A DNA stretch of 24,000 nucleotides, taken from the NCBI GenBank assembly GCA_035649535.1, contig DASRJI010000168.1, positions 1-24,000 on the forward strand. The letters run 5' to 3'. Below the pieces are notes generated by a model. That model ran no database searches, was not told the origin of the DNA, and worked only from the letters and a program-made list of their open reading frames with translations. How positions within the stretch are numbered: the stretch's first letter is position 1; every line of letters begins with the position of its first letter. Shown here in pieces: positions 346 to 17,461 of the stretch. Source of the DNA: Acidimicrobiales bacterium. GTDB lineage: Bacteria > Actinomycetota > Acidimicrobiia > Acidimicrobiales > JACDEA01. The position numbers and the translations under genes are program-made.

Positions 346-1481
346 TGCGGCGGCTCGCCGCCGCCTTCGCGGTGTTCGGCGCCTTTTGGGGCGGGTGGGC
401 CGTCGCCGCCGCCGACGTCGAGCGGTCACTCCACCTCTCGCATGCCGGCTTCGGGCTGCTGTTGTCGGCGGCGCTAGGCGGAGCGGCGCTGACCAACGCC
501 ATCGGTGGCGCGCTCGTCGAGCGCCACGGCACCGCGTCGATGTTCCCAGTAACGCTCGCGGGCTGGGCTGTGCTCCTCGTCGTCGGCGCGGCGGTGCGCT
601 CGCCAATCGCGCTGGGCCTCGTCATCGTGCTGCTGATCGCGTCGGGCGGCTTCCTCGACGTCGTGATGAACGTCGCCGCGACAGCGGCGCTGGCCAACGA
701 GCCGGGCGAGCTCGTGCGCTTCCATGCTCGCTTCAACGTCGGCGCCGCGATCGGCGCCGCGTGTACCGGCGTCCTGCTCGCCAACGGCGCGTCGTGGCGC
801 TGGCAATGGGCGGGCATCGCCGCAGGTGCCCTGCTGCTCGCCACCGCGACCCGCGGTCGCGACTTGCCCGCCGGGGAGGCGGGGGAACACACGGAACTGA
901 CGTCGGCCCTGTCGCTGCTCCGCCGCGAACGCCTCGTACTGATCGCGCTCGCGTTCGCGGTCGGCGCCATGGTCGAAGGCGGCATTGACCTCTGGGGCGT
1001 GCTCTTCCTGCGGACATTCCTGTCCTCCGGTATCGCCGTCGCCGCCACCAGTTCGACCCTCGGCTTTTGCGTGGCGGCCGCGGCGCGCGTGTTCATCGGG
1101 CCCCGCGTCGCGCAACGCGGCGCGGTGGCTGGTACCGCGGCCGGGGGTATCGCCGCCGGCGTCGGGGTGCTGGTGCTTGCGCTGGCCCGCACGCCCTGGC
1201 TGTCGGGCGTCGGGCTCGTGCTCGCCGCCGGTGGCATCTCGATGTGCTGGCCCCTGTTGCTCGCTTACGCCAGCGCAGGCCGGAGTCGGCCCGGGCTCGT
1301 CGTCGGCGGGATGAGCGGCGTCGGCTATCTCGGGTTCGTGGTCGGGCCGACCTTGGTGGGCTGGCTGGCCGCCGCCTTCGGGCTGCGGTGGGGCCTGCTG
1401 GTGCTGGCTACCGGGGGGTTGTTCGTGGCCGTCGCGCCACTCGCGCACCGCCGCGCCGTATCGCCAAGCCGACAGCCATGA
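345..1481 (+). CDS. MFS-type membrane transporter
   Basis: 378-aa ORF that is very hydrophobic, with about 11-12 predicted TM segments rich in Gly/Ala/Leu. A central charged loop (RGRDLPAGEAGEHTELTSALSLLRRER) separates two halves, as in MFS proteins. The GTG start overlaps the TetR stop. Confidence 0.75.
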   Translation: MRRLAAAFAVFGAFWGGWAVAAADVERSLHLSHAGFGLLLSAALGGAALTNAIGGALVERHGTASMFPVTLAGWAVLLVVGAAVRSPIALGLVIVLLIASGGFLDVVMNVAATAALANEPGELVRFHARFNVGAAIGAACTGVLLANGASWRWQWAGIAAGALLLATATRGRDLPAGEAGEHTELTSALSLLRRERLVLIALAFAVGAMVEGGIDLWGVLFLRTFLSSGIAVAATSSTLGFCVAAAARVFIGPRVAQRGAVAGTAAGGIAAGVGVLVLALARTPWLSGVGLVLAAGGISMCWPLLLAYASAGRSRPGLVVGGMSGVGYLGFVVGPTLVGWLAAAFGLRWGLLVLATGGLFVAVAPLAHRRAVSPSRQP

Positions 1482-3645
1482 CGACCAAGCCCACGGCCAG
1501 CGCGGACCGTCGGCCGGTCGCCGGGAGGACGGCCTTGCCGAGAACGGATGAACCGGTGGCCACCGCCGACACTGGCGCCGGGCCGAGGGCACGGCCGCCC
1601 ACCGCACCGTTGTACGTGAGCCACGCGATGGCGCCCTGCTTCGACACACCGGGCTTCGAGTAGTCGCACACACCGGTCGGGAAGGTCGCACGCAAGGCGG
1701 CGAGCTGCGGGTCGGTGAGGGCGACGGGATAGTCCTCCCGCCGCAACGGCTTGAGCTGACACTTCATGGTGTCGTCGGCGATCGGTGCGCCGGCCTCGAT
1801 GCGCGGCGACGCGTAGGCCTGCACGGTCCCGTCGCACACGGCGCCCGGGACGTCGACGCCCGCGCCGTTGGTGCACCGGTCGGCGACCGACGCCGGTTTG
1901 TCGTCGAGGATCTTGCGGGCCAGAGGAACGGCGCGGTGATCCTTCTCGACGGCGGCGAGCCAGCGGTCCATGGCGAACACGGCGTCGTCGGCGAACGTGG
2001 CGTCGCCCAGCAACGGCGCCTGCCCGCGCCACAAGACCTGGTTCGCCGCGGTGCCGTGCTCCCGTAGCAAGCGGGCCCGCATGGCGTAGGTGCGGTACAC
2101 GTCGTGGAACGCACCCGGATCGGGGCCCCGCAGATCGATGATCGCGACCTGGTCGAGGTTGTTGGCCGTGTTGATCGCGCCGCTGGTGTACGCCCGTTGC
2201 AGCGCCAGCGGATCGGCGACGGTGCGGGCGGCCTGCGGGTTGTAGTCGATATCGAACGCGCCGATCTTGGTGTTGAGGTCGACGAACTCGGCCGCCGTCA
2301 TCGTCCCGGCGAGGAGTCCGGACAGCCCGTACTGGATGCCGACGTTGTCGGCGGGCCGGCGCGCCTTGCCGTCGGCCGTCGCGCCGAACACATTCACCAT
2401 GTAGTCCTGCAACGAGCAGCGCACGCCCCGCGGGTTCGTCTGCGCGTCGTACACCTGCGCGGCGGGAACGCCCGGGCACGGCCGGCTCGGGTCGCCGCCC
2501 GAAGAGATGACTTCGGTGAACGTGATGGGATTGGCGACGTTCGGATGACCGTACGCCGACATCATCTGCACCGGCGTCCACACCACGCCGAGACCCCACT
2601 TGTCCGGGTGTTCGAAGTAGGCGCGCAGGAGTTGGTAGTCGACGTATTGCTGCGCCGACGACCACGCGTCCGTGAAGCTGCATTGCGGCGTGATGCCCTG
2701 GTACAGCCCCGGATAGGCGTTGGCAACCTGCTGCTGCACGAGCGACCCACCTGAGCAGCCGCGACCGATCGTGTAGCGGATCGGGCCGAACTCCTCGATC
2801 ACCTTCTCCTTGGTCATCACCAGCGACTCGGCCTGCGTGATGATGTTGCAGTTGTGCCCGGCGTTATCGAGGGCGTGCGACATCACGATGAATCCCTTGG
2901 CCAGCGCGGGCTCGACCAGCACGTCGGGCGCGGCGTCCATCTCATAGGCGGTGTCACAGCTCGCGCCGTGCGTGATCACGAGCTTCGAATTCACACCCGC
3001 CGGCGGATCCCACGGCGTGCCCGCCTTCTTCGGATCGAACAATGCAGCGATGCGGTACTGGTCACGGGCCAGCACGCCGATCTCCTGGCGGACGATGAAC
3101 GGGACGGTCTCGCCCGTGTCGGTCGTCGTCATCGCCACGTCCGATGGTGGCGACGCCATGTTGTAGGCGGCCAGCGACCCGCCACTGGTCCGCTGGTAGA
3201 CGTAGTTGTACTGGGGCGGTCGATTGCATTCCTTGTCGACGCCGCCCGGCGTGCACCCCCACGGCTGGATGTGGGGGCCGGAGAACACTGGTCCGCCGAT
3301 CGGTGCGTTGGTGATCGTGAGTTGCGCACCGCGACCGTCGGCCACCGCGGCCCGCACCGTGTTGGCGCCTACCCGCAGACCGGTGAGGAGGCCTTGCACC
3401 CGGCCGGTTGGCCGCAACGCGAACTTGCTGCTCACGTCCTTGCCGTCAACGGCAACGCGTACCGACGACGGGTCGGCCCCCGCCGGCAGGCGAACTTCGA
3501 CGAGCGCGTCGCCGCCCGAGACGAGATCGGCCCGGTTCGACAGCACGACGATCTCGAGCGGCGCGCTCGACGGTGCGGCCGACACCGGAGGCGCGGTCAC
3601 CGAGCCGACGATTGCCACCAGCGCGGCGGCACCCAACAACCTCAT
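1408..3645 (-). CDS. Secreted tannase/feruloyl-esterase-like alpha/beta hydrolase (DUF6351-like, from memory) with C-terminal LPXTG-type sorting signal
   Basis: 745 aa. N-terminal signal peptide (MRLLGAAALVAIVGSVTAPPVSA/AP). GCSGGS nucleophile-elbow motif as in the tannase family (GCSxGG). The C-terminus reads LPATG, then a hydrophobic stretch (ALAVGLVVMAVGLAI), then an Arg-rich tail. Many Cys residues are consistent with an extracytoplasmic protein. Confidence 0.75.
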   Translation of the reverse strand: MRLLGAAALVAIVGSVTAPPVSAAPSSAPLEIVVLSNRADLVSGGDALVEVRLPAGADPSSVRVAVDGKDVSSKFALRPTGRVQGLLTGLRVGANTVRAAVADGRGAQLTITNAPIGGPVFSGPHIQPWGCTPGGVDKECNRPPQYNYVYQRTSGGSLAAYNMASPPSDVAMTTTDTGETVPFIVRQEIGVLARDQYRIAALFDPKKAGTPWDPPAGVNSKLVITHGASCDTAYEMDAAPDVLVEPALAKGFIVMSHALDNAGHNCNIITQAESLVMTKEKVIEEFGPIRYTIGRGCSGGSLVQQQVANAYPGLYQGITPQCSFTDAWSSAQQYVDYQLLRAYFEHPDKWGLGVVWTPVQMMSAYGHPNVANPITFTEVISSGGDPSRPCPGVPAAQVYDAQTNPRGVRCSLQDYMVNVFGATADGKARRPADNVGIQYGLSGLLAGTMTAAEFVDLNTKIGAFDIDYNPQAARTVADPLALQRAYTSGAINTANNLDQVAIIDLRGPDPGAFHDVYRTYAMRARLLREHGTAANQVLWRGQAPLLGDATFADDAVFAMDRWLAAVEKDHRAVPLARKILDDKPASVADRCTNGAGVDVPGAVCDGTVQAYASPRIEAGAPIADDTMKCQLKPLRREDYPVALTDPQLAALRATFPTGVCDYSKPGVSKQGAIAWLTYNGAVGGRALGPAPVSAVATGSSVLGKAVLPATGRRSALAVGLVVMAVGLAIRRGGARVARRPRTTPR

Positions 3646-3680: not shown

Positions 3681-4199
3681 CTAGCGAGCCTGGGCGACGA
3701 GTGCCTCAGCGTCCTCCGGACGCAGCTGGCCGAGGTGGCGCGCCACCAGAACGCCTCGGCTCGACACCGCATACGTGACCGGGAGTCCGGGCTTCTGGGC
3801 GACGCGGTACGCCCGGGCGATGCTGCCGTCGTCGTTGGCCGTGGTGATCGTGACGCCCAGTTCGCCGAGGAACGACCGGGCGCTGCTCGGCGAGTCGTCG
3901 AACAGCACGGCGATGACCTCGGCCTGCTTTCCGTCCTGCACCCTCTGGAGCAACGGCAGCTCCTCGCGGCACGGCGTGCACCACGATGCGAAGAAGTTGA
4001 CGAGCACGGGCTTGCCGCGGAAGTCCGTCAGCCGCACCTCGCCGGTCCCGACGAGGCGGGGCGCGGCGAACGTCGGCGCCCGCTTCCCCACCGTCGCCCG
4101 CACCGACCCGCCACCGCCGCTGCTGCACGCGGCGAGTAGGACTACGACGAGGAGGGTGGCGGCGGTGTGCGCTCGAGCTCGCGTGCGACGTCGTCCCAT
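3681..4199 (-). CDS. TlpA/ResA-like thiol-disulfide oxidoreductase lipoprotein (thioredoxin fold)
   Basis: This is the internal ATG (CAT at 4197..4199) of the 435-aa track ORF. It gives a 172-aa product with an Arg-rich n-region, the lipobox-like LLAAC, and the thioredoxin motif FFASWCTPCREELP. It is the last gene of the cta string. Confidence 0.85.
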   Translation of the reverse strand: MGRRRTRARAHTAATLLVVVLLAACSSGGGGSVRATVGKRAPTFAAPRLVGTGEVRLTDFRGKPVLVNFFASWCTPCREELPLLQRVQDGKQAEVIAVLFDDSPSSARSFLGELGVTITTANDDGSIARAYRVAQKPGLPVTYAVSSRGVLVARHLGQLRPEDAEALVAQAR

Positions 4200-4999
4200 G
4201 TCAGTACATCGTCGCGCTGCGTTCGCGGCCGCCGGTTCTCCTCGGCGTACCACCGGAAGAACATCACGACGATCACGCCCCACAGGATCGACCCACCCAA
4301 CACCTTCATCAGGGCGCCGGCCAGCTGCTGGTCGGCCACCGCCGAGAGATGGAACGGGTGCGGCACCGTTGCGTAGAACTTGTAGATCACGCCGTCGGCG
4401 AACGTGATGAACGACGCCGGCACCGTCGGGATCACCGACTGCAGGAACAGGTACACCATGCGCGCCGGCGGGGTGAGCATCGGGAACTCCGGCATGCGGT
4501 TCATCACCGGGAACCACATCAGCAGCGCGGTGAAGAAGATCAGGCAGTGCGCGCCGAAGTGGATGCCCTCGGAGCGCAGGGCGGCGTCGACAACCGGCGG
4601 CCAGTGCGTGAAGACGAACGCGGTGTTGTAGATCACCGCGGCGAGCAGCGGCCGGGCGAGGAAGCGAACGGCCGCCGTCGCCGACGGAGGCCGCAGCAGC
4701 CACCGCTTCAACCAGTCGGGCGTACCGACCAGCAGCAGGGGCGGCACGACCAGCGTGAGCAAGATGTGCTGCACCATGTGGACGCTGAACAAGTAACGCT
4801 CGGCCAGGTCGTGGGCCGGCCAGTCGGCGGCGATCCACATCAAGGCGACGCCGGTGTAGAAGGTGGCGATCTGCCGACGCGCCGTCTGCCCGCCGACTTT
4901 CGGCCCGACGAGACGCAGCGCGGCGGCGTACCCGAACGCGACGAGCCCGATAACCGCCCAGACGGACGGGTGGGCGTGCCACGCCCACGGCGACTTCAT
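4142..4999 (-). CDS. ctaG: Cytochrome c oxidase assembly factor CtaG (caa3/Bacillus type, polytopic membrane protein)
   Basis: 285 aa and multi-TM. Motifs such as FSVHMVQHILLTLVVPPLLLVG and FTHWPP are typical of the COG3336 CtaG family. Its ATG shares one nucleotide with the ctaF stop. Confidence 0.8.
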   Translation of the reverse strand: MKSPWAWHAHPSVWAVIGLVAFGYAAALRLVGPKVGGQTARRQIATFYTGVALMWIAADWPAHDLAERYLFSVHMVQHILLTLVVPPLLLVGTPDWLKRWLLRPPSATAAVRFLARPLLAAVIYNTAFVFTHWPPVVDAALRSEGIHFGAHCLIFFTALLMWFPVMNRMPEFPMLTPPARMVYLFLQSVIPTVPASFITFADGVIYKFYATVPHPFHLSAVADQQLAGALMKVLGGSILWGVIVVMFFRWYAEENRRPRTQRDDVLTWDDVARELERTPPPPSSS

Positions 5000-5328
5000 C
5001 AGCTCCCGATGAACGTGTGGAGCGTGAGCAGGTACAGCATGTACACGATCACCGCGAGCACGAGACCGGCCACGAACAGCCGACGCAGCACCGGATGGTC
5101 GAACTTGAGGTGCATGAAGTACATGGCGACGGTGGCGAACTTGATCGCGGCCAGCACGAGCAGGCTGCCGTTGGTGAGGATCTGGCTGCCGCCGATCTTG
5201 AGGTACGACAGCGCCACCTCGATGCCCGTGAGGACGGCGAGGAAGATCGCCACGCGGACATAGACGGCCTCGCCCGGATGCTCGTGTTCCTGCGTGGCCA
5301 CGTGCGGCGGCGGTTCGTGGGTCGTCAT
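4999..5328 (-). CDS. ctaF: Cytochrome c oxidase subunit IV (prokaryotic caa3 type)
   Basis: Small 3-TM protein (VRVAIFLAVLTGIEVALSY, AAIKFATVAMYFMHLKF) in the position after ctaE. I chose the internal ATG at 5328 (MTTHEPP), 8 nt after the ctaE stop. The track ORF extends to 5382 but would overlap ctaE by 46 nt. Confidence 0.8.
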   Translation of the reverse strand: MTTHEPPPHVATQEHEHPGEAVYVRVAIFLAVLTGIEVALSYLKIGGSQILTNGSLLVLAAIKFATVAMYFMHLKFDHPVLRRLFVAGLVLAVIVYMLYLLTLHTFIGS

Positions 5329-5336
5329 CGCTTCGC

Positions 5337-5951
5337 TCAATTCGACGGGATCAGGTAGACGACCGTGAAGATCACGATCCACACGACGTCGACGAAGTGC
5401 CAGTACAAGCCGGCGATCTCCACGACCTCGGCTTTTTCCTCCGGCAGCTTGCCCCGCATCGACATGCTCCAGAGCGAGAGCAGCATGACGATGCCCAGCG
5501 TGACGTGCACGCCGTGGAACCCGGTGAGGACGAAGAAGCTGCTACCGAACACGTTGGTCTTGATCGTCAGGCCTTCGCGGATGAACGACGTGAACTCGTA
5601 CACCTGACCCGAGATGAACGTGGCGCCCAGCAGCGCGGTGGCAAGCAGCCACACGCGAAGCCGGCGATGGTCGCCACGCTGGATGGCGGCCAGGGCCAGC
5701 ACCATCGTGAGCGAGCTCATCAGCAGGACGAACGAGCTGACCGACGTGTAGGGGATGTCGTAGATGTCCTTGGGCGTCGGACCGCTGACGCTCTTGCCCC
5801 GGTACAGCAGGTACGTCGAGATCAGCGCGCCGAACAGAAGGCACTCGGAGCCGAGGAACGTCCACATCGCCAGCTTCTCGTTGGAGAGGCCGGTGTTGGT
5901 GACGTGGCCGTGATCGTCGCCCCCGTGTTCGTCAACAGTGGTGGTGCTCAC
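5337..5951 (-). CDS. ctaE: Cytochrome c oxidase subunit III
   Basis: 204 aa, 5 TM. It has the C-terminal GLYWHFVDVVWIVIF signature of COX3. GTG start in a GTGA overlap with the ctaD stop. Confidence 0.9.
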   Translation of the reverse strand: MSTTTVDEHGGDDHGHVTNTGLSNEKLAMWTFLGSECLLFGALISTYLLYRGKSVSGPTPKDIYDIPYTSVSSFVLLMSSLTMVLALAAIQRGDHRRLRVWLLATALLGATFISGQVYEFTSFIREGLTIKTNVFGSSFFVLTGFHGVHVTLGIVMLLSLWSMSMRGKLPEEKAEVVEIAGLYWHFVDVVWIVIFTVVYLIPSN

Positions 5952-7942
5952 GCGTCCACCTCCTCGACGGCTGCGGCGCCCTCAGATCCTGTGTCTCCCG
6001 GATCGGCTCCGTCTCCGCCTCCGCCTCCCTCATGATCATCGTGCGGCTCGGCCGACGGCTCCAACGCCCACGCGTAGAGGGCGCCGATGATCACGATGCC
6101 GCCGAAGACGGCGACGAGGTAGGCGCCGTAGATCATGGCGTAGGCCATGATCGGCAGACCGAACGACGCGATCAGCGGGTAGTACGACGGCGACGGCAGG
6201 TGGATCGACGCCGGGTCGACGTCGTCCGCCTGCGCCTCCTGCGGTGGCAGCTTGACCAGACGGCCCTGCTCGTCCTCGGTGTACTTCTGGTGCCAGAAGT
6301 CGTCGACTCCATGCACCGTCGGCACGACCGCGAAGTTGTACGCCGGTACCGGCGTGGGCAGCGTCCACTCGAGCGTGCGCCCATCCCACGGGTCGTCGCC
6401 GACGACGTTGCGGACCTTGCGCGAGTGCATGACGTTGTAAAGGAAGATCAGTACCGAGAAGGCGATGACGAACGCCCCGATGGACGCCACCAGGTTCCAG
6501 AAGTCCCAGCCCATGTGCTTCGGGTACGTGTAGATGCGCCGGGGCATGCCAGCCAGGCCCAGCAGGTGGAACGGGCCGAACGTGACGTTGAACCCGATGA
6601 ACCACAGCCAGAACTGGAGCTTGCCCAGCCGCTCGCTCAGCGCGTAGCCGAAGATCTTCGGCCACCAGTAGTAGATGCCGGCCATGATGCCGAACAGCGA
6701 ACCCCCGAAGAGCACGTAGTGGAAGTGGGCGACGATGTAATAGGTGTCGGTCTGCTGACGATCGTGCGGCGACACCGCATGGGTAACGCCCGACAGGCCG
6801 CCGATCGTGAACATGGCGACGAAGCCGATGGCGAACAGCATCGGCGTGCTCAATCGCAACGAACCGCGCCACATGGTCGCGATCCAGTTGAAGATCTTCA
6901 CGCCGGTCGGGACGGCGATGAGCATGGTCGTGACCGAGAAGGCCGACACCGCCACCGGGCCCAGACCGACGGCGAACATGTGGTGCACCCACACGCCCCA
7001 GCCCATGAAGCCGATGGCGATACCCGAGAAGACGACGACCGGGTAACCGAAGAGTGGTTTGCGCGAGAAGACCGGCAGGATCTCCGAAACGATGCCCATC
7101 GCCGGGAGGATCAGGATGTACACCTCTGGATGGCCGAATAACCAGAAGAGGTGTTGCCACAACAGCGGGTTCCCGCCCGCGGCGGTGTTGAAGAAGTTGG
7201 CGCCGAACAGCCGGTCGAACATCAACAGGAACAGCGCGATGGTGATCACCGGCATGGCGAACAGCATCAGGAACGACGACACCAACGTCATCCACACGAA
7301 CACCGGCATTCGGAACAACGTCATTCCGGGCGCGCGCAGGTTCAGGATGGTGACGATGAAGTTGACGGCGCTGACCGTCGACGCGATACCGAGGATCTGT
7401 AGGCCGAAGATCCAGAAGTCGATGTTGTGGCCGGGCGAGAACGTGATGCTCGTGTTCGGCGCGTACCCGAACCAGCCGCCATTGGGCGCTCCGCCGAGCA
7501 GGAAGCTCGAGTTGATCAGGAGCGCTCCGAACAGGAACGTCCAGTAGCTGAACGCGTTGAGGCGCGGGAACGCCACGTCTCGCGCGCCGATCATCAGCGG
7601 CGTGAGGTAGTTGAAGAAGGCGGCGGACAGCGGCATGACGACGAGGAACACCATCGTCGTGCCGTGCATCGTGAAGACCTGGTTGTACGCGTCGGCCGAC
7701 AGCACCGTGCCGTTCGGCCTGGCCAGCTGCAGCCGGATCAACAGCGCTTCGGACCCGCCCACGAGGAAGAACGTGAACGACGTGATGCCGTAGAGGATTC
7801 CGATCTTCTTGTGGTCGACCGTCGTCAGCCACGACCACACGCCGGTCGTCGCCTTGGGCCGGCGCAGCAGGCCGGACTCCTCGACGACCTCGGCGTCGAC
7901 GATGTCTTCAGTTGTCGTTGTTGGCTCTAAGACAGTGGCCAT
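5948..7942 (-). CDS. ctaD: Cytochrome c oxidase subunit I (A-type, 14-TM long form)
   Basis: All canonical motifs are present: FTMHGTTMVF (heme a His), WLFGHPEVY (CuB His, cross-linked Tyr, Glu), WVHHMF (CuB His-His), AHFHYV (heme a3/heme a His) and TGVKIF (K channel). It has two extra C-terminal TM helices plus an acidic tail. Confidence 0.95.
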   Translation of the reverse strand: MATVLEPTTTTEDIVDAEVVEESGLLRRPKATTGVWSWLTTVDHKKIGILYGITSFTFFLVGGSEALLIRLQLARPNGTVLSADAYNQVFTMHGTTMVFLVVMPLSAAFFNYLTPLMIGARDVAFPRLNAFSYWTFLFGALLINSSFLLGGAPNGGWFGYAPNTSITFSPGHNIDFWIFGLQILGIASTVSAVNFIVTILNLRAPGMTLFRMPVFVWMTLVSSFLMLFAMPVITIALFLLMFDRLFGANFFNTAAGGNPLLWQHLFWLFGHPEVYILILPAMGIVSEILPVFSRKPLFGYPVVVFSGIAIGFMGWGVWVHHMFAVGLGPVAVSAFSVTTMLIAVPTGVKIFNWIATMWRGSLRLSTPMLFAIGFVAMFTIGGLSGVTHAVSPHDRQQTDTYYIVAHFHYVLFGGSLFGIMAGIYYWWPKIFGYALSERLGKLQFWLWFIGFNVTFGPFHLLGLAGMPRRIYTYPKHMGWDFWNLVASIGAFVIAFSVLIFLYNVMHSRKVRNVVGDDPWDGRTLEWTLPTPVPAYNFAVVPTVHGVDDFWHQKYTEDEQGRLVKLPPQEAQADDVDPASIHLPSPSYYPLIASFGLPIMAYAMIYGAYLVAVFGGIVIIGALYAWALEPSAEPHDDHEGGGGGDGADPGDTGSEGAAAVEEVDA

Positions 7943-8970
7943 CAGTGAAGCGTCTCCAGGAATGCGATCAACTTGCCAATCTCATCTTCGGTCAGTTGGA
8001 GGTTGGGCATGCCGAGCCCCTTGTTGGGGTTCATCGGCTTCTGGCCGGGCGGGTCCCTGAGCCACAGCCGCAGCTGCTGCTCGTCCAGGGTGAACAACGC
8101 GCCGGCGAACGTCTTGCGGCTGTAGAGGTGCGTGAGGTTGGGCCCGACGGTGCCAGCCGTGTAGCCCGACACCGAGTGGCAACCGCCGCAGCCCTTGGCC
8201 TTGAACAAGCTGGCGCCCTCGCCGGCGGTCCCCGACGTCGGGATAGCGGCCTCGCGTTGCTGATCGGCGATCCACCGCGCGAAGTCAGCCTGCGTATGGG
8301 TCACGACGCGGATACGCATGTTGGCGTGGGAGAGACCGCAGTACTCGGTGCACTGACCGAGGTAGGTCTGGCCCGCCTTGTCGGCCTGAATCGTGAGGTG
8401 GTTGTCGCGACCGGGGACGGCGTCCATCTTGCCGGCGAGGGCGGGCGCCCAGAAGCTGTGAATCACGTCGACCGATGACACCTTGACGAACACCGGCTGA
8501 CCGACCGGGATGTGCAGCTCGTTGGCGGTGGTGACCTTGTAGTCGAGGTAGTCGTACTCCCACCACCACTGATGGCCGATCACCTTGACGTTGAGCACGT
8601 CGCCGGTGGGCTTGCGATCGAGGTCGACGAGCGTCGTGACCGTGAAGAAGCCGACGATCAGCAACAGCAACGCCGGCAGGATCGTCCAGCCGATCTCGAG
8701 CGTGGTGTTGCCGTGCACCTGGACCGGCGCGTCGTCGTCGGACTTGGCGCGGTAGCGGATGAGCACGAAGAGGATCAGGCCCTCGACGAGCACGAAGATG
8801 ATGACGGCGATCAGGAAGACCGGATTCCAGAGGCTGTCGAGCTTGCGAGAGATCGGCCCCTGCGGATTGAGGATGTCCTGCGGCTCGGGCTGGCGGCTGC
8901 ATGCAGTCGCAATGAGCGCGAACGCGGGAAGGACGAGCGCGAAGCGAAGGCGGCGACGGAACGTGGTCAT
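7942..8970 (-). CDS. ctaC: Cytochrome c oxidase subunit II with fused C-terminal cytochrome c domain (caa3 type), probable lipoprotein
   Basis: CuA motif HSFW...CTEYCGLSHANM. C-terminal CGGCH heme c attachment site with a downstream GMPN Met ligand. N-terminal signal with LIATAC. Confidence 0.95.
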   Translation of the reverse strand: MTTFRRRLRFALVLPAFALIATACSRQPEPQDILNPQGPISRKLDSLWNPVFLIAVIIFVLVEGLILFVLIRYRAKSDDDAPVQVHGNTTLEIGWTILPALLLLIVGFFTVTTLVDLDRKPTGDVLNVKVIGHQWWWEYDYLDYKVTTANELHIPVGQPVFVKVSSVDVIHSFWAPALAGKMDAVPGRDNHLTIQADKAGQTYLGQCTEYCGLSHANMRIRVVTHTQADFARWIADQQREAAIPTSGTAGEGASLFKAKGCGGCHSVSGYTAGTVGPNLTHLYSRKTFAGALFTLDEQQLRLWLRDPPGQKPMNPNKGLGMPNLQLTEDEIGKLIAFLETLH

Positions 8971-10016
8971 CAGTGCTTCGTGGTCTCCTCGCCGGCCGTC
9001 TTGGACTCGGCGGGCGTGATGACCAGGGTCCCGGTCATCGTCGTCGGGTGGAAGTCGCAGACGAAGGCGTAGCTGCCGGGCGCCGGCGTGTGCGTGTCGT
9101 ACTGGATGCGACCACCGGGGATCGGCTTCCCGTTGAAGAGCGGTCGACTGCCGGGCTCGGTGGACGTGTAGAACGCGACGTTGTGGTAGGTGCCGACGTC
9201 GTCATTCTGGAACTTGACGATGACTTCCTCACCGGCCGGGAACTTGATCTCTTTCAGGGAGAACTGGACGTCCTTGGCGGTGACGGCGACGGTCGGTATC
9301 TCGCTCGGCTCCGGATGAAATTCGCGCTCGCCGGCCTTGGCCCCGATCGCACCAGCGGCGACCATCCCGACGAGCGCAACCGAGGCGATGCCCACGAGGG
9401 CCGACGGTTGCAGACGTGGGCGGGAAGCGATGAACCACAGCACCACGACCAGACCAGCGGCCAGCACGAGCGCGGTGACCCACGATGCGGTGGTTGAGAT
9501 GGCGAGCAGCACACGGGAGACCATCACCGCGATGAACAACGCGCCGAGCACGCCGAGCACCGGCATGGCGAGCGGCGCAACCAGGCGCTCGACGACGCGC
9601 GCCTGCACCGGCCCCGTGAAGCTCGGGTGTTCGCGCCAGACCTGCGAGAGCCAACCGCCGAGCGGGATCAGGGTGGCGGCGAGGGCGGCGCCGAGCCACG
9701 ACGCTCCGGCGGCGGTCGCCAGGGCCAGGGACACCAACGACAGCGCGGCGACGAGCGGCCACGCGCTGGCGGCCGGTGCGTCGGCTTCGGTGTAGGCGTT
9801 GCGGCGCTCGGGCGCCGGTGCGTCGGCCGGCACCGCCGGCGCGCGGTCGTCGCGCAGCGTGAACGCGGCGACGAGGGCCAGCACGGCGGCCGCGCCGGCG
9901 ACGCCGGCGAGCAGATCGGCGCCGGCGCGATCACCGACCACCACGCCGTAGCCGATGGCGGCGACGAGCGCGACGCCGCTAAGGGCGACGTACAGCTTGG
10001 TTGCGAGGTTGACCAC
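8970..10016 (-). CDS. Polytopic (about 7 TM) membrane protein with C-terminal type-1 (blue) copper cupredoxin domain
   Basis: 348 aa. The N-terminal 240 aa form about 7 hydrophobic helices. The C-terminal 100 aa carry the cupredoxin ligand pattern GTYHNVAF ... FVCDFHPTTMTG (His, Cys-x2-His-x3-Met). GTG start 7 nt after the upstream stop. Its stop shares one nucleotide with the ctaC ATG. Confidence 0.8.
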   Translation of the reverse strand: MVNLATKLYVALSGVALVAAIGYGVVVGDRAGADLLAGVAGAAAVLALVAAFTLRDDRAPAVPADAPAPERRNAYTEADAPAASAWPLVAALSLVSLALATAAGASWLGAALAATLIPLGGWLSQVWREHPSFTGPVQARVVERLVAPLAMPVLGVLGALFIAVMVSRVLLAISTTASWVTALVLAAGLVVVLWFIASRPRLQPSALVGIASVALVGMVAAGAIGAKAGEREFHPEPSEIPTVAVTAKDVQFSLKEIKFPAGEEVIVKFQNDDVGTYHNVAFYTSTEPGSRPLFNGKPIPGGRIQYDTHTPAPGSYAFVCDFHPTTMTGTLVITPAESKTAGEETTKH

Positions 10017-10023
10017 GGCGGCT

Positions 10024-10617
10024 CTACCGGTGCTGGAGGAGGAAGAGGGCGGTGAACACGAGCAGCCACGCGGCCGACACGACGTGCCAGTGCCACGCGG
10101 CGGCGCGGACCAATGACGGATCGGAGGCGGTGGCCTGGTCGCCCATCGTGCGCGTCAGGGCCACGATGAGGAACCCGATACCGCCGACGGCGATGACGCC
10201 GACGACGATGAGCAGCGCGTAGGCCAGCGCGCCGTACGAATGGTCAGCCGGCCCGAAGTGCAGCTGGGTACCGAGGTACCAGAGCAAGTTGACGAACGCG
10301 AGGCCGAGTCCGCCGGTGAGCGTCAACGCTCCCAAGGACTGGCGGCGGTTGCCGCGCCGCAACGCGTACACCGCCCACTCAGCGGTGACGATCGTCAAGC
10401 CCATCGTGATCGTGAGCGTCGTGCCGAGGTAGTTGTCGAGGCTCACGCCCTTCGGCGGCCACCGGTCGGCCAGGCCGCGCACGTTGAGGTAGCCGGCCAC
10501 GAGGGCGCCGACCACCATCAATTCGGCGACGCCGGCCAGCAGGGTTGCGACACTCAGCCCGTTGGTCGGACGGCCGCGGTCGCCGCGCGGGAGGGCGAGC
10601 ATCGTGGGCGTGCTCAT
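10024..10617 (-). CDS. Heme-copper oxidase subunit III-like membrane protein (second copy, divergent)
   Basis: 197 aa, about 5 TM. The C-terminal AAAWHWHVVSAAWLLVF matches the COX3 WHFVDVVW signature region. ATGA overlap with the upstream subunit I-like gene. Confidence 0.7.
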   Translation of the reverse strand: MSTPTMLALPRGDRGRPTNGLSVATLLAGVAELMVVGALVAGYLNVRGLADRWPPKGVSLDNYLGTTLTITMGLTIVTAEWAVYALRRGNRRQSLGALTLTGGLGLAFVNLLWYLGTQLHFGPADHSYGALAYALLIVVGVIAVGGIGFLIVALTRTMGDQATASDPSLVRAAAWHWHVVSAAWLLVFTALFLLQHR

Positions 10618-12140
10618 GCCGATGCCTCGACGGCGCGCAGATCGCCGAGCGGCGTGGACGAGCGCACTTCAGGAATGGCGTCGAAGTTGTGCGCGGGCGG
10701 CGGTGAGGTCGTCGCCCACTCGAGGGTGAGGCCGGCCTCGGCGGCATCGCTCGCGGTGACGCGGGCGGCGCGGGCCATGACCGACGCGGCGGTGGCGAGG
10801 ATGCCGAGGAGCACCAGGACGGCGCCGCCCTCGGCGATGCGGGAGAACCCGTCGGACGCGGCGACCTCGCCCGCTTGGCCGTCCCACCCGGCCAGATACG
10901 ACCCGAGCGCCATCACGGCCGAGCCACCGAAGAGCAGGAGGAGCTGTGCGCTGCCCGCCGCCGCACCGATCGGGCGGCCGAAGAGCTTGGCGCCCCAGTA
11001 GTGGAGGGCGCCGACGGCGAGGAGGAGCGGCGCGGCGATCGCGACCAGGTCGAGTTGACCGGCTGACCATGCGCTGCCATCGACCGGCTTGATGGCGGCG
11101 ACCCCGGCGGCCAGGCCGGCGGCCGCGAGAGCGAGGATGAAGGCGACCACGAACGATGCGCTGACGTCGGGCCGCGGCCGACCGGCCCGGCGCAGGGTGT
11201 CGAGCCAGACGAGCACGAGCACCGCGAGCGGGATCACGACCGCCGCGGTCAACCCGGAGTAGGTCGGCAGGACGATGCTGCTGGCGACCTTCGTGCCGGC
11301 AGCCCACGCGCCGAAGGCGAGGAACCCGACGGCGGCGATCGCGGTTCGGGCCGCGTTGAGGTTGGCGAGTGGGCGATCGGCCGCGTGGGCGACGATGTCG
11401 CTCGCCGCGCCCAGCCCGGGAACCACGAGCAGGTAGACGTCGGGCCGCCCGTACAGCCACAACATGTGCTGCCAGATGACCTGCGTGCCCACCGTGCCGG
11501 CGGCGAAGAACTCGTGGCCGCCGAAGTGCTGGTCGATGAACAGCAGCACCAGCCCGGCGAGGAACACCGGCGCCGCGAGCAGGGTGCCCGTGCTGCTCAC
11601 CAGCGTCGCCCAGCTGAACATCGGCAGGCGGCCCAGCGTCATGCCGTCGGTGCGGTACAGCAGCACGGTGGCAACCAGGTTGGCGGCGGCGGCGATGGCG
11701 GCGATGGTGACGACGATGAGGCTCGCGACCCAGAGGTCGGTGTGGCCCTTGTCGCCCGCGCCGTTGAGCATGAACTGCCGCAGGCTGACGCCGACGACCC
11801 GAGGCCCGGCCCCGGTCTCGCTCAAGAGGTGGACAACACCGCCCAGCGCGTAGCTCCAGAACGCGAAGGACTGGAGCCTTGGGAAGGCGAGGCGCGAGGC
11901 GCCGATCTGCAGCGGGACGAGGTAGGTGGCCAGGCCGACCCACAGCGGGGCGAGCACAAGCGTGGCCGTGCCCGAGGCGCGCAGGTCGGAAAGGCGCAGG
12001 TAGGAGAGCTGCGAGAGGTCGGACTGGGCCCGCAGGAGCGCTCCGGCAACGCCGCCCACCACCAGGAAAGCCAGCGCCACGACGATGTACATGCGCCCGA
12101 TGCGCTTGTGGTCGGCCGTGGTCAGCCAGGTGCCCGTCAT
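10614..12140 (-). CDS. Heme-copper oxidase subunit I-like protein lacking the canonical heme/CuB histidine ligands
   Basis: 508 aa, 12-TM-like, clearly homologous to CtaD (WLTTADHKRIG, LAFPRLQSFAFW, MTLGRLPMFSWATLVSS, IWQHMLWLYG, LTLEWATT..AHNF). The ligand positions read ASG, GRPDVY, WAAGTK, and there is no AHFHY motif. The ORF is uninterrupted and translationally coupled downstream. Confidence 0.85.
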   Translation of the reverse strand: MTGTWLTTADHKRIGRMYIVVALAFLVVGGVAGALLRAQSDLSQLSYLRLSDLRASGTATLVLAPLWVGLATYLVPLQIGASRLAFPRLQSFAFWSYALGGVVHLLSETGAGPRVVGVSLRQFMLNGAGDKGHTDLWVASLIVVTIAAIAAAANLVATVLLYRTDGMTLGRLPMFSWATLVSSTGTLLAAPVFLAGLVLLFIDQHFGGHEFFAAGTVGTQVIWQHMLWLYGRPDVYLLVVPGLGAASDIVAHAADRPLANLNAARTAIAAVGFLAFGAWAAGTKVASSIVLPTYSGLTAAVVIPLAVLVLVWLDTLRRAGRPRPDVSASFVVAFILALAAAGLAAGVAAIKPVDGSAWSAGQLDLVAIAAPLLLAVGALHYWGAKLFGRPIGAAAGSAQLLLLFGGSAVMALGSYLAGWDGQAGEVAASDGFSRIAEGGAVLVLLGILATAASVMARAARVTASDAAEAGLTLEWATTSPPPAHNFDAIPEVRSSTPLGDLRAVEASA

Positions 12141-12167
12141 GGCGTGCGCAATCTAGTCATTGGCGCG

Positions 12168-13061
12168 TCAGCGACTCCGCACCAACTGGTCCAATGCCAT
12201 GGCCGAAAACAACAAGGTCACGTAGGTGATCGAGTAGCTGAAGAGCCGCATGGCCCGGGCAGCGGTGCCGTCCTGGAGGAGGCGCACGGCCAGGACGAGG
12301 AATACAGCACCCAGCACCACGGCGGCGACGCCGTAAATCGCCCCCATCCCGCCCACCTCGGCGAACACGAGCGACAGGGCGTACAGCGCCACCGTGTAGA
12401 CGATGATCTGGCGCGCCGTGGTCTTGAGCGAGGCGACCGCGGGGAGCATGGGGACGCCCGCAGCCCGGTAGTCGTCGCGGTACTTGATCGCCAGGGCCCA
12501 GAAATGCGGCGGCGTCCAGACGAAGATGATGGCGAACAGGACGAGCGGCGCCAGGCCTACGTCGTTGCGGACCGCGGCCCACCCGACCAGTACCGGCACG
12601 GCGCCCGCCGCACCGCCGATCACGATGTTCTGCCGGCTCGTGCGCTTGAGCCAGAGCGTGTACACGAACACGTAGAAGAGGGTCGCCGACAGGGCGAGGA
12701 CCGCCGACAGCAGATTGACCAACACCCACAGCTCGACGAACGCGACGGCCTCGAGAATGAGAGCGAACGTCAGCGCGGCCGCGGGCGTGACCTCGCCGGT
12801 GACGAGCGGCCGGCCTGCGGTGCGGGCCATGAGCCGGTCGATGTCGCGGTCGGCCCACATGTTGATCGCGTTGGCGCCGCCCGCAGCCAGCGCACCACCG
12901 AGCAGCGTGGCCGCCATGAGCCCGAGCGACGGCATGCCGCGCTGGGCCACCACCATTGTCGGCAGCGTGGTCACGAGCAGCAGCTCGATGATGCGGGGCT
13001 TGGTGAGGGCCACGTAGGCCTTCACTGGGCCCCGACGACCCAAGAGGCGGGTGGCAGGCAT
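12168..13061 (-). CDS. ctaB: Protoheme IX farnesyltransferase (heme O synthase)
   Basis: 297 aa of the UbiA prenyltransferase family. Motifs: YVALTKPRIIELLL, NMWADRDIDRLMARTAGRP, TPPHFWALA. Its stop lies 27 nt upstream of the subunit I-like start. Confidence 0.93.
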   Translation of the reverse strand: MPATRLLGRRGPVKAYVALTKPRIIELLLVTTLPTMVVAQRGMPSLGLMAATLLGGALAAGGANAINMWADRDIDRLMARTAGRPLVTGEVTPAAALTFALILEAVAFVELWVLVNLLSAVLALSATLFYVFVYTLWLKRTSRQNIVIGGAAGAVPVLVGWAAVRNDVGLAPLVLFAIIFVWTPPHFWALAIKYRDDYRAAGVPMLPAVASLKTTARQIIVYTVALYALSLVFAEVGGMGAIYGVAAVVLGAVFLVLAVRLLQDGTAARAMRLFSYSITYVTLLFSAMALDQLVRSR

Positions 13062-13131
13062 CCGGGCAGCACACTAACTGGCTCGTGACCGGATTCACCA
13101 AGCGCGGACATGCCCCTACTGTCCAGGTTTC

Positions 13132-14034
13132 GTGGGCCGACTCTCCCCCCGTACCTACGGGCTCCTGACGGCCGTCGTCACGTGGGCGGTGGCGGCGATC
13201 ATCGTCACCGGTGGCGCGGTTCGGCTGACCGGGTCCGGCCTGGGCTGCCCCGACTGGCCGACATGCACGCAGGACCGCCTCGTCGCCCAGTGGGACTACC
13301 ACCAGATGGTCGAATTCGTGAACCGGGTCGTGACCGGCTTGGTCTCGGTCGGCGTCATCCTCGCCGTCCTCGGGGCATGGGTGCGCGTCCCCCGGCGTCG
13401 CGATCTCGTGCTGCTGGCGTGCGGCCTGGTGGCCGGGGTGATCGCCCAGATCGTGCTGGGCGGGATCACGGTGCTTTTCGACCTGGCGCCCCAACTCGTC
13501 GCCAGCCACTTCCTGCTCTCACTCGCCCTGCTGACCGTTGCGGTCGTCCTGCACGAGCGGGCGACGTCGCCCGACACGCCGCCGGTGCTGGCGGTGCCGG
13601 CCGACTTGGCACGGCTGGGCCGCGTGCTGCTCGCGGCCGCCGCGGTCGTCGTCGTCACCGGAACGGTCGTCACCGGCTCCGGGCCTCACGGTGGCGACGA
13701 GCACGCCCGTCGCTTCCCGTTCCTCCCGACCGACGCGGCGCGGGTGCACGGCATCAGCGTGATGTTGTTCCTCGGGCTGACGTTGCTCACAGTCGCGTTG
13801 TTGCGCCGCAGCGGGACGCGACCCGAGACCGTGCGGCGGGCGACGGTGCTGCTCGCGGTCATCGTCGGCCAGGCCGCGGTCGGCTACACGCAGTACTTCA
13901 CCGGTGTGCCCGCGTTGCTCGTCGGCATTCACCTCGCGGGCGCCGCCGCGGTGTGGACCGCCACCGTGCGGTTCCAACTCGGGCTCTACGTGCGGACTGC
14001 GACAATGGCTCCGTGGCCGGCACCGCACCCGTAG
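13132..14034 (+). CDS. ctaA: Heme A synthase (COX15/CtaA family)
   Basis: 300 aa and multi-TM. It has the [12 protein letters not shown] motif and a second-half HGGDEH / VHG histidine region typical of CtaA. Divergent from ctaB with a 70-nt spacer. GTG start. Confidence 0.9.
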
Positions 14035-14318
14035 AGCTCGAGCGCCCCGACATCGGGTGGGCGAGCGACGAGGACGTCAGCCCCGACCACCCGTGGATCG
14101 TCATCGTGTGGAACGACCCGATCAACTTGATGTCCTACGTCACCTACGTGTTCCAGAAGCTGTTCGGTTACAGCCTCGAGAAGGCGACGAAGCTGATGCT
14201 CGACGTCCACGAGAAAGGCAAGGCGGTGGTGTCGAGCGGCTCGCGTGAACGAGCTGAACTCGATGTGTTCCGGCTTCACGAACACGGGCTGTGGGCGACG
14301 ATGGAGCACAACGGTTGA
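14013..14318 (+). CDS. clpS: ATP-dependent Clp protease adaptor ClpS
   Basis: The C-terminal part of the 402-aa track ORF reads [47 protein letters not shown], the ClpS core. The first in-frame start upstream of the core is the GTG at 14013, which overlaps the ctaA end by 22 nt. The start is uncertain. Confidence 0.85.
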
Positions 14319-14782
14319 TGGAGATGGAGCCCCCGGTTCGCCGGGTGGCCAGCGGCGGCTTCGCCGTCACGCTGTCCGACGACGAGCGCGACGTGTTGCG
14401 CGGCCTGCCGACCCAACTACGCGAACTGCTCGGCAGCGACGACCCGTCGTTGCGCAGGCTCTTCCCGCCCGCCTATCCCGACGACGACGAGTTGGAAGCC
14501 GAGTACCGACAGCTCATGTCGGAGGACCTGCTGGCCGGCCACGCCGCGTCGCTCGACCTCATGGAGGCCACCGTCGACCACGACGAGCTGACCGAGGACG
14601 AACTCGTCGGCTGGCTCGGCGCCCTCAACGATCTGCGGCTCGTCCTGGGAACGCGTCTCGACGTCACCGAGGACCTCGACCCGACGACCATCGATCCCAA
14701 GGATCCGCGGCGCCATGCCTTCGCGCTGTACCACTACCTCACGTGGCTGCAGGACGAGGTGATTACCGCCCTAAGCGGCTGA
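14318..14782 (+). CDS. DUF2017-domain protein (conserved ClpS-neighbour in Actinomycetota)
   Basis: Acidic protein (RRLFPPAYPDDDELEAEYRQLMSEDL, WLGALNDLRLVLG) in the typical position after clpS. I chose the ATG at 14318, which shares one nucleotide with the clpS TGA. The track ORF starts at 14291. Confidence 0.7.
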   Translation: MEMEPPVRRVASGGFAVTLSDDERDVLRGLPTQLRELLGSDDPSLRRLFPPAYPDDDELEAEYRQLMSEDLLAGHAASLDLMEATVDHDELTEDELVGWLGALNDLRLVLGTRLDVTEDLDPTTIDPKDPRRHAFALYHYLTWLQDEVITALSG

Positions 14783-17388: not shown

Positions 17389-17461
17389 GCCCCCATCGTC
17401 CAGCGGCCTAGGACGCCGCCCTTTCAAGGCGGTAACACGGGTTCGAATCCCGTTGGGGGTG
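17389..17461 (+). tRNA. tRNA-Glu (anticodon UUC)
   Basis: Folds by hand as a cloverleaf. Acceptor GCCCCCA/TGGGGGT (G1-U72). D arm GTCC/GGAC. Anticodon arm CCGCC-CTTTCAA-GGCGG. T arm ACGGG-TTCGAAT-CCCGT. 73 nt, and CCA is not encoded. Confidence 0.9.

Follow-up and report, generated by a model that had tools for sequence, protein, structure and literature searches.

Why would an operon for a terminal oxidase also encode a second set of oxidase-like subunits whose catalytic subunit seems to have lost its active site? The question is raised by a 24,000-nucleotide stretch of DNA from an Acidimicrobiales bacterium (GenBank assembly GCA_035649535.1, contig DASRJI010000168.1, positions 1 to 24,000), which we will call the window. 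Ten genes on its minus strand, running from 13061 to 3681 (about 9.4 kb), form the unit ctaB, ps1, ps3, cupr, ctaC, ctaD, ctaE, ctaF, ctaG, and a gene for a TlpA/ResA-like lipoprotein. Most of these genes belong to a caa3-type cytochrome oxidase. We use ps1 for the paralogue of subunit I, ps3 for the paralogue of subunit III, and cupr for the seven-helix cupredoxin protein; we will call all three the trio. A sequence-only reading of the window had described the trio as an oxidase-like module with a lost catalytic centre. It offered three possible roles: docking a blue-copper carrier onto the caa3 oxidase, conducting ions or protons, or handling copper.

We propose that the trio is a scaffold which derives from an oxidase but has no catalytic activity, that it tethers a blue-copper carrier which feeds the caa3 oxidase, and that it perhaps docks to complex III. 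We give this proposal a probability of about one half.

A subunit I fold without metal ligands

The product of ps1 matches COX1 from Pfam with 197 bits (the cutoff is 34.8), while the true CtaD of the operon scores 541 bits. It also matches CtaD_CoxA from NCBIfam (TIGR02891), but its score of 279 bits is below the equivalog cutoff of 670.75, which the neighbouring CtaD exceeds with 726 bits. When ps1 and CtaD from the window are aligned (33% identity), all six histidine ligands turn out to be replaced in ps1 (0/6 kept). The histidines that bind haem a are replaced by R54 and D364, the one that binds haem a3 is replaced by Q362, and the CuB ligands are replaced by R232, A281, and G282. The active-site tyrosine is kept (Y236). 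The proton channels are altered as well: the D-channel aspartate (D122) is replaced by R83 and the K-channel lysine (K349) by L308. The pair of arginines that interact with the haem propionates (R468/R469) is replaced by glycine and glutamate.

The AlphaFold2 model of ps1 has 12 long helices and a predicted TM-score (pTM) of 0.84. Foldseek aligns the model to CtaD from the supercomplexes of C. glutamicum and mycobacteria with TM-scores of 0.82–0.84, and a sequence search of PDB with ps1 likewise ranks the CtaD chains of the Corynebacterium and Mycobacterium supercomplexes highest. Thus, ps1 is a non-catalytic CtaD-like paralogue which has the complete fold of subunit I and, in this genome, neither CuB ligands nor haem ligands. 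The alignment of the ligands bears out the earlier description of an oxidase-like module with a lost catalytic centre. The stronger statement that the redox cofactor sites of subunit I are gone is true of the window's copy, but it does not extend to the family, as most members keep the ligands of the low-spin haem.

What the ps1 family keeps and what it has lost

We aligned 137 members of the ps1 family with 86 canonical subunit I sequences (the counts for haem-ligating histidines are over 135 family members). None of the 137 kept any CuB ligand. The first CuB position is arginine in 137 of 137 family members and histidine in 86 of 86 canonical CtaD proteins, and the second and third positions are usually alanine (91%) and glycine (89%). 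The aspartate at the entrance of the D channel is replaced by arginine in 132/137 sequences (96%), and the asparagines of this channel are replaced too. At the position of the K-channel lysine, 130/137 sequences (95%) have leucine, valine, or isoleucine. The pair of arginines at the haem propionates is lost across the family. Judging from this alignment, what best characterises the family is the absence of CuB and of both proton channels.

These replacements bear on the suggestion that the trio derives from the proton pump of an oxidase and serves as an accessory module that conducts ions or protons. The 12-helix fold is kept, and so is an acidic residue: glutamate or aspartate is invariant at the position of E273 (E286 in Rhodobacter). 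But with arginine at the entrance of the D channel, with the channel asparagines replaced, and with a hydrophobic residue in place of the K-channel lysine, the known routes for protons are gone, and without redox chemistry the copy in the window has no evident driving force. Conduction was one of the roles proposed from the sequence alone, and we now consider it very unlikely.

Other parts of the active site are better preserved. The active-site tyrosine is kept in 124/137 family members. The pair of histidines that binds the low-spin haem is kept in 130/135 (96%), and 92/135 (68%) additionally keep the proximal histidine of haem a3. In the remaining third of the family, this histidine is replaced by glutamine, asparagine, glutamate, tyrosine, or proline. 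Most of the family also keeps the arginine that forms a hydrogen bond with the formyl group of haem a. More broadly, the ps1 family retains 52 of the 111 sites at which canonical CtaD is at least 95% conserved.

Could ps1 be an enzyme in its own right? Electrons might pass from the type-1 copper of cupr to the low-spin haem of ps1 and then to a high-spin haem with a distal arginine, and the copy in the window would have been inactivated secondarily. The two sets of haem ligands fit this idea, as do the invariant arginine at the position of R232, the retained tyrosine, and the invariant acidic residue at the E273 position; also, the ps1 family is old and monophyletic. However, the haem that would be catalytic has lost its proximal ligand in a third of the family, and both proton-uptake pathways and the haem-propionate arginines are missing. 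The set of genes is unchanged where all of the haem ligands have been lost. Furthermore, the trio has no subunit II with a CuA site and no residues for a quinol site, and it is linked strictly to the caa3 oxidase. We consider an autonomous enzyme without CuB to be unlikely.

The loss of haem ligands is limited to the window, one close partial relative, locus L007, and a few others. The nearest relatives of the window's ps1 (67–71% identity) retain the low-spin histidine pair, so the losses are recent, and at least two separate lineages (the window's and that of L007) have undergone them. That haem ligands were lost at least twice while the operon and the copper site remained intact points to a role that does not depend on haem.

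A quinol site of the bo3 type in ps1 was considered and rejected: the arginine and aspartate in helices I and II of bo3 are glycine and valine in the family consensus (by eye).

A divergent branch of ps1 is represented by L051 (6359–8065) and L114 (47–1300), which have AAYPTLW instead of GRPDVY around the first CuB position. These proteins have similar scores against ps1 and against CtaD; they keep the first histidine of haem a and have no CuB ligands. Between ctaB and the paralogue, L051 has a CtaG-like gene in reversed orientation.

Source annotations describe ps1 as "cbb3-type cytochrome c oxidase subunit I" or "cytochrome c oxidase subunit 1." Metagenomic surveys may therefore count ps1, annotated as an oxidase subunit, as a second terminal oxidase.

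A subunit III paralogue and a three-part cupredoxin protein

The product of ps3 matches COX3 from Pfam (50.6 bits, with a gathering score of 23.8) and has five helices, as in CtaE from Gram-positive bacteria. Its best NCBIfam model is aa3_CtaE_Actin, with 47 bits, which is below the cutoff of 190. It aligns over its whole length to mycobacterial CtaE. By these scores, ps3 is a divergent homologue of CtaE and not an equivalog.

The third protein, cupr, is a three-part fusion: a CtaF-like four-helix domain, a three-helix anchor, and a type-1 blue-copper domain. The copper domain matches Cupredoxin_1 from Pfam (41.6 bits, with a cutoff of 27). Its ligands H278, C320, H323, and M327 are invariant across 28 aligned orthologues, with the last three in a short Cys-x2-His-x2/3-Met loop. 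These ligands agree with the earlier prediction of a mononuclear type-1 copper site. There is no CuA motif (H...C-x-E-x-C-x3-H-x2-M) in cupr, which has C-D-F-H-P-T-T-M with a single cysteine, and it has no COX2 match in Pfam. In the AlphaFold2 model, which has seven helices, this domain is a Greek-key beta-sandwich with a predicted local distance difference test score (pLDDT) of about 96. Its best structural matches from Foldseek are auracyanin A, the auracyanin of Roseiflexus, and amicyanin (E = 7e-8 to 1e-6), with CuA domains as a second tier. The family's profile also matches amicyanin, with E = 5.6e-10. The charges of the loops obey the positive-inside rule if the cupredoxin is outside. 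We conclude that the predicted type-1 copper domain is amicyanin- or auracyanin-like and, as modelled, extracytoplasmic. Source annotations of cupr are "plastocyanin" or "cupredoxin domain-containing protein."

The N-terminal part of cupr resembles a different oxidase subunit. The Pfam model for actinobacterial CtaF (PF12270) matches 17 of the 28 orthologues at E < 0.01 (best E = 3e-6); for cupr from the window the score is 18.2 bits, below the gathering score of 26.9. Conversely, positions 6–124 of the cupr profile match residues 5–129 (of 139) of the CtaF chains of M. tuberculosis and M. smegmatis, with E = 1e-5 to 4e-5. Helices 1–4 are likely to be homologous to actinobacterial CtaF, in a fused and divergent form. 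The sequence-only reading had put cupr in the place of subunit II, which does not agree with a CtaF-like N-terminus and an amicyanin- or auracyanin-like copper domain.

The trio is conserved within the cta operon and under selection

The order ctaB-ps1-ps3-cupr-(tlpA)-ctaC-ctaD-ctaE-ctaF-ctaG-tlpA is kept in 9/9 of the genome or assembly loci that we fetched, with ps1 identities of 39–71%. Wherever the upstream flank of a relative is annotated, ctaA, clpS, and a DUF2017 gene are found on the divergent strand. (In the window, clpS and the DUF2017 gene follow ctaA at 14040–14782 on the plus strand, and they are in the same place in L081–L085.) A scan of metagenomes that was seeded with cupr found 29 loci with the full-length architecture. 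Upstream of cupr, ps3 is present in all 22 loci with enough sequence, with ps1 beyond it and then ctaB where the contig reaches that far. Downstream, ctaC is present in 22 of 22 loci with enough sequence, in some of them after an extra TlpA-like gene. So, in the nine loci, in the window, and in the metagenomes, the trio always lies between ctaB and ctaC. In every informative relative, the trio is a real, co-inherited module of the cta operon, as had been supposed from the window alone.

An exhaustive profile search with the cupr family found 402 cluster representatives at E ≤ 1e-30, so the family is large. The named records with the trio are all Acidimicrobiales or unclassified Actinomycetota metagenome-assembled genomes (MAGs), and we identified no cultured organism among the trio-bearing records (including those from a word-indexed protein search with the cupr alignment). 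We also scanned species genomes with the ps1 alignment, but the pattern TLEWA..SP also matches true CtaD. Of the 80 loci from that scan, 76 are ordinary oxidases, which we reused as canonical controls and for the observations on Chloroflexota below; only L001, L002, L007, and L051 belong to the family.

Several relatives have an extra TlpA/ResA-like gene between cupr and ctaC, such as L082 (11306–11809) and L085 (6621–7193). Among the metagenome loci, it is found in L087, L089, L090, L092–L094, L100, L101, and L114, among others. It is additional to the tlpA at the end of the operon, and the window does not have it. In L081 (13169–14187), the closest relative on a long contig, ctaC is split into a 275-amino-acid open reading frame (ORF) with the CuA site and a 79-amino-acid ORF with the cytochrome c; this could reflect an assembly frameshift or a true division of the gene.

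Are these genes functional? For the closest pair of genomes, the ratio of nonsynonymous to synonymous substitutions (dN/dS) is 0.25 for ps1, 0.33 for ps3, and 0.31 for cupr, as compared to 0.18 for ctaD, 0.19 for ctaC, and 0.15 for ctaE. These values are meaningful only relative to each other, since synonymous sites are near saturation (proportion of synonymous differences, pS, 0.4–0.5) and the GC content at third codon positions (GC3) is about 0.9; we quote the closest pair alone. The mean pairwise distance is 0.77 for ps1 and 0.22 for the adjacent CtaD from the same genomes. By these comparisons, the trio are functional genes under purifying selection with relaxed constraint, and not decaying copies.

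A functionless relic, that is, a duplicated or superseded oxidase in decay, would account for the faster evolution of ps1, for the drift of the trio's composition towards glycine, alanine, arginine, and proline (38% versus 28% in CtaD), and for the progressive loss of haem ligands. But a decaying gene would not be expected to remain an intact full-length ORF in well over 100 divergent sequences, nor to have dN/dS as low as 0.25–0.33. The copper ligands and residues specific to the family are invariant, and synteny is strict over identities of 39–71%. A relic is highly improbable.

The trio also differs from its neighbours in base composition: its GC content is 70–72%, versus 61–65% for ctaC, ctaD, and ctaE (window 9001–12000 versus 5001–8000). 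A horizontal origin of the lower-GC ctaCDE genes was rejected: GC3 is 0.89–0.93 in all ten genes, and the gap lies in codon positions 1 and 2. Glycine, alanine, arginine, and proline make up 35–38% of the residues of the trio, and 20–28% of those of CtaC, CtaD, and CtaE. This enrichment explains the higher GC content of the trio, and no gene transfer is needed.

Origin of the trio

In a neighbour-joining tree of ps1 with 87 canonical CtaD sequences, the ps1 clade is monophyletic and has a long branch, which joins the tree deep down, between the aa3 group and the caa3 group. The ps1 clade lies outside the caa3 CtaD proteins that are its neighbours, so this tree excludes that ps1 arose by a recent duplication of the ctaD next to it. 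As evidence on the origin of ps1, we consider the comparison of profile scores, together with the CtaF-like domain, to be better than the tree. With hidden Markov models (HMMs), the mean score for the ps3 family is 88 bits with CtaE of the actinobacterial aa3 type, 79 bits with CtaE from the aa3 oxidases of Chloroflexota, and 29 bits with the neighbouring caa3 CtaE. For ps1 the order is the same and the contrast is weaker (356, 337, and 331 bits). The active oxidase next to the trio has a Bacillus-type subunit IV (COX4_pro) and Caa3_CtaG. These comparisons suggest that the trio descends from an aa3 oxidase of the actinobacterial or Chloroflexi type and did not arise as a tandem copy of the caa3 genes.

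Related cupredoxins in other oxidase loci

Cupredoxins of the same subtype are found in A-type oxidase systems that lack the pseudo-subunits. In two Chloroflexota / Limnocylindria MAGs (L004 8681–9916 and L010 7785–9263), CtaC itself has a homologous type-1 cupredoxin at its C-terminus. The Pfam domains of these proteins are COX2_TM, COX2, and Cupredoxin_1, so that the cupredoxin is found where a caa3 oxidase has its cytochrome c. By its domain content, this architecture amounts to a "blue-copper aa3" oxidase. In L016 (12323–13654), a protein with subunit IV-like helices and the same cupredoxin is encoded after ctaE, and subunit I from this operon groups with the fully liganded canonical CtaD proteins.

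A shorter relative of cupr is encoded after ctaG in about 25 metagenome loci, in caa3 operons without ps1 or ps3. It has three helices that are equivalent to helices 5–7 of cupr, followed by two tandem cupredoxins with the motif C[DE]FHPTTMTG. An example is L121 (7962–8993), and L119–L135, L143–L148, L152, and L155–L164 are similar. These proteins are homologous to residues ~138–334 of cupr: they match cupr in its SRVLL and SRP motifs and over profile positions 138–334, beginning at their residue 2–6.

This cupredoxin subtype appears repeatedly in A-type oxidase systems without pseudo-subunits, and it is most simply explained as the donor of electrons to the oxidase. More broadly, these loci suggest that A-type oxidases of Acidimicrobiales and Chloroflexota have blue copper as a built-in donor of electrons.

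Chloroflexota aa3 operons encode subunit IV-like proteins downstream of ctaE in L016, in L008 (10302–11699 and 11570–12874), and in L013 (~12000–13389). These proteins have helices of the H-x-P-x-P-S-x-W-P type and, after these, between one and three type-1 cupredoxin domains. The C-terminal ~120 residues of CtaD from the window (5948–6310) form an extension with IHLPSPSYYP, then hydrophobic stretches that resemble two extra helices, and an acidic, glycine-rich tail; IHLPSPSYYP resembles the P-x-P-S-x-W-P that precedes helix 3 of cupr and of the subunit IV-like proteins from Chloroflexota.

The proposed role of the trio

In our proposal, ps1, ps3, and the CtaF-like domain of cupr would assemble in the manner of oxidase subunits I, III, and IV. 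The CtaF-like domain provides a rationale for the binding of cupr to ps1 and ps3. The assembly would have no oxygen chemistry and no paths for proton uptake, and its only universally retained redox centre would be the type-1 copper. The scaffold would hold the blue-copper domain at the outer face of the membrane, where the copper could take electrons from menaquinol:cytochrome c reductase and hand them to the entry site (cytochrome c and CuA) of the co-expressed caa3 oxidase. In this way, the small membrane-bound cytochromes c of other monoderm bacteria would have their counterpart in the carrier, which would take their place. In most members of the family, a low-spin haem in ps1 may join in electron transfer or may stabilise the assembly; the haem would be dispensable, as the lineage of the window does without its ligands. 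Of the three roles suggested earlier, the docking of a blue-copper carrier onto the caa3 oxidase is the one favoured by the comparative evidence (the fusions of cupredoxin to CtaC and the three-helix proteins).

The retained CtaE-like and CtaF-like parts may also dock the carrier to complex III. In actinobacterial III2IV2 supercomplexes, complex III is contacted mainly by CtaE and CtaF; these are the contacting subunits in M. smegmatis (PMC8361435). These are exactly the parts that the trio retains, which makes a docking role plausible, although unproven. A menaquinol-cytochrome c reductase has been reported from Acidimicrobiia of the order UBA5794, in whose genomes it is encoded (PMC12008989).

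Several observations weigh against our proposal. A scaffold of 24 helices seems costly for a carrier that is anchored by three helices elsewhere. With the low-spin pair kept in 96% of the ps1 family and the haem a3 ligand in 68%, the ancestral and commonest form of ps1 may carry out its own redox chemistry. The contacts among the trio's proteins, with the caa3 oxidase, and with complex III are predictions, and for complex III we extrapolate from mycobacterial structures. The membrane part of cupr is modelled at moderate confidence (pLDDT 50–80). Finally, every relative that we found is a MAG or a metagenome contig.

A more specific history is that the trio is a fossil of an ancestral actinobacterial aa3 oxidase, repurposed as an adaptor for a supercomplex of complexes III and IV, with blue copper at the former place of CuA relaying electrons to the separate caa3 oxidase. 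In this history, the CtaE-like and CtaF-like parts would still bind to menaquinol:cytochrome c reductase, so that a pseudo-enzyme would link complexes III and IV both physically and electronically. We find this possible but rather doubtful.

If docking is correct, then the contacts within a supercomplex can outlive the enzyme that made them. Also, the ps1 family provides a natural series from haem-containing to cofactor-free proteins, in which to study what the scaffold of an oxidase does beyond catalysis.

Comparison to known systems

One close counterpart is the actinobacterial aa3 oxidase of the bcc-aa3 III2IV2 supercomplex (M. smegmatis, M. tuberculosis, and C. glutamicum). The resemblance lies in the fold of ps1 and CtaD, in ps3 and CtaE, and probably in the N-terminus of cupr and CtaF. 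Unlike that oxidase, the trio has no CuB and no subunit II with CuA, and the copy in the window also lacks the haem ligands and the proton channels. The trio's CtaF-like part is fused to three more helices and a cupredoxin, and its genes are in a caa3 operon instead of beside qcrCAB.

The auracyanins of Chloroflexus and Roseiflexus, and amicyanin, share with cupr the fold, the His/Cys/His/Met site, and the short loop. The auracyanins are also tethered to the membrane of a monoderm-type cell. However, they are tethered by a lipid anchor or a single helix, where cupr has a seven-helix anchor, and no oxidase pseudo-subunits are encoded alongside them.

In caa3 oxidases with a carrier fused to subunit II (Thermus and Bacillus), and in the CtaC-cupredoxin proteins of Chloroflexota, the principle is the same: the donor is built into the oxidase or beside it. 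In the window, however, the cupredoxin is separate from CtaC, which already has a cytochrome c; it is joined to a subunit IV-like domain instead and accompanied by inactive subunits I and III.

AcoP from Acidithiobacillus ferrooxidans, a mononuclear cupredoxin with a membrane anchor, is an interaction partner of an aa3-type oxidase, and it has been proposed to donate electrons to the oxidase and/or to stabilise it (PMC10804444). It is a distant structural match to the copper domain of cupr (Foldseek rank 35). AcoP differs from cupr in having one helix, a green copper site, an acidophile-specific loop, and no paralogues of subunits I and III.

A chaperone-like role in partnership with cytochrome oxidase has also been discussed for AcoP (PMC10804444), and we considered that the trio might be a complex for the biogenesis of the caa3 oxidase. 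In that case, ps1 would receive or buffer haem A from CtaA and CtaB, or the cupredoxin would protect or load the copper centres, as proposed for AcoP. The trio lies between ctaB and ctaC, with ctaA divergent and with ctaG and tlpA in the same unit; many relatives have a second TlpA-like gene right after cupr; and most of the ps1 family keeps the low-spin haem site and the arginine that bonds the formyl group. However, the operon is still intact in the window, where ps1 lacks every haem ligand. The copper site is of the classical, buried type-1 kind and not a chaperone site of the Sco, PCuAC, or CupA type, and the fusion of the cupredoxin to mature CtaC in Chloroflexota better suits a permanent redox partner. 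An assembly factor therefore seems improbable to us, and the copper-handling role suggested in the sequence-only reading fits poorly with an invariant, classical site for electron transfer.

The ps1 family also differs from the nitric oxide reductases (NORs) of the same superfamily. In cNOR/qNOR, eNOR, bNOR, sNOR, gNOR, and nNOR, the binuclear centre is modified (PMC11214002). These variants keep metal ligands and lack the active-site tyrosine: cNOR and qNOR have three histidines and a glutamate for FeB, and gNOR has an aspartate instead of one histidine (PMC11214002). In contrast, the ps1 family has lost all three histidines (they are arginine, alanine, and glycine in the window), has kept the tyrosine, and is of A-family origin.

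We found no description of this module in the literature that we searched as full text, including a survey of variant haem-copper oxidases (PMC11214002), but the coverage is incomplete, so novelty is unproven. The haem-copper oxidases belong to the most thoroughly studied membrane enzymes. Nor did we find, in the literature searched on them, an earlier account of an oxidase paralogue that lacks the binuclear centre yet is conserved, selected, and locked in an oxidase operon.

Layout of the operon

The features of the locus are listed in Table 1. The ORFs and family assignments of the sequence-only reading are as it described them, and a direct reading of the sequence reproduces every junction that it gave. 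There is a 27-nt gap between ctaB and ps1. The start of ps3 overlaps the end of ps1 by 4 nt (ATGA, at 10614–10617), and a 7-nt gap separates ps3 from the GTG of cupr at 10016. The cupr and ctaC genes overlap by 1 nt at 8970 (TGATG). Further on, ctaC and ctaD overlap by 1 nt, ctaD and ctaE by 4 nt, and ctaF and ctaG by 1 nt. Several of the start codons are inferred. The 8-nt gap between ctaE and ctaF is conditional on a start at the ATG at 5328, and the 58-nt overlap of ctaG and tlpA is conditional on a start at the ATG at 4199, from which the protein has a lipoprotein-like signal.

A simple scan of the sequence found no promoter-like site within the cluster. Its sole terminator-like site is inside ctaG, and four would be expected by chance. 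No terminator-like site separates the genes, and the junctions are compact. The compact junctions and the scan are consistent with a single transcription unit, although they fall short of proof.

Table 1. Features of the cta locus in the window.
Feature	Position	Strand	Comments
ctaA (haem A synthase)	13132..14034	+	Divergent; followed by clpS and a DUF2017 gene
ctaB (haem O synthase)	12168..13061	-	First gene of the unit; NCBIfam haem o synthase, 399 bits, above cutoff
ps1	10614..12140	-	508 amino acids; A-family haem-copper oxidase fold with 12 helices; no metal ligands
Codon of R232, which replaces the first CuB histidine	11445..11447	-	GRPDVY versus canonical GHPEVY
ps3	10024..10617	-	197 amino acids, 5 helices; ATGA overlap with ps1
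cupr	8970..10016	-	348 amino acids, 7 helices, C-terminal type-1 cupredoxin
cupr residues 1-129	9630..10016	-	Four-helix domain, probably homologous to actinobacterial CtaF (subunit IV)
cupr residues 135-227	9336..9614	-	Helices 5-7; membrane anchor common to shorter "class B" cupredoxin proteins
cupr residues 237-335	9012..9308	-	Cupredoxin domain; Cu ligands H278, C320, H323, M327
ctaC, caa3-type subunit II (CuA site and fused cytochrome c)	7942..8970	-	Pfam COX2_TM, COX2, Cytochrom_C
ctaD, catalytically complete subunit I	5948..7942	-	Above the NCBIfam CtaD_CoxA cutoff; all ligands present
ctaE, subunit III	5337..5951	-	Pfam and NCBIfam matches
ctaF, Bacillus-type subunit IV (COX4_pro)	4999..5328	-	Pfam match; start ATG at 5328 inferred
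ctaG, caa3-type assembly factor	4142..4999	-	Pfam Caa3_CtaG, 162 bits
TlpA/ResA-like thiol-disulfide oxidoreductase lipoprotein	3681..4199	-	Last gene of the unit; Pfam/NCBIfam match

The translation of ctaC carries both the CuA motif CTEYCGLSHANM and the haem motif CGGCH.

Immediately downstream of the cta genes, at 1408–3645 on the minus strand, the window encodes a 745-amino-acid DUF6351 (tannase-like) protein, with a full-length match of 758 bits, a signal peptide, and a C-terminal hydrophobic anchor. Three tRNA genes (from Rfam) lie on the plus strand of the window at 17389–17461, 18927–19001, and 19029–19101.

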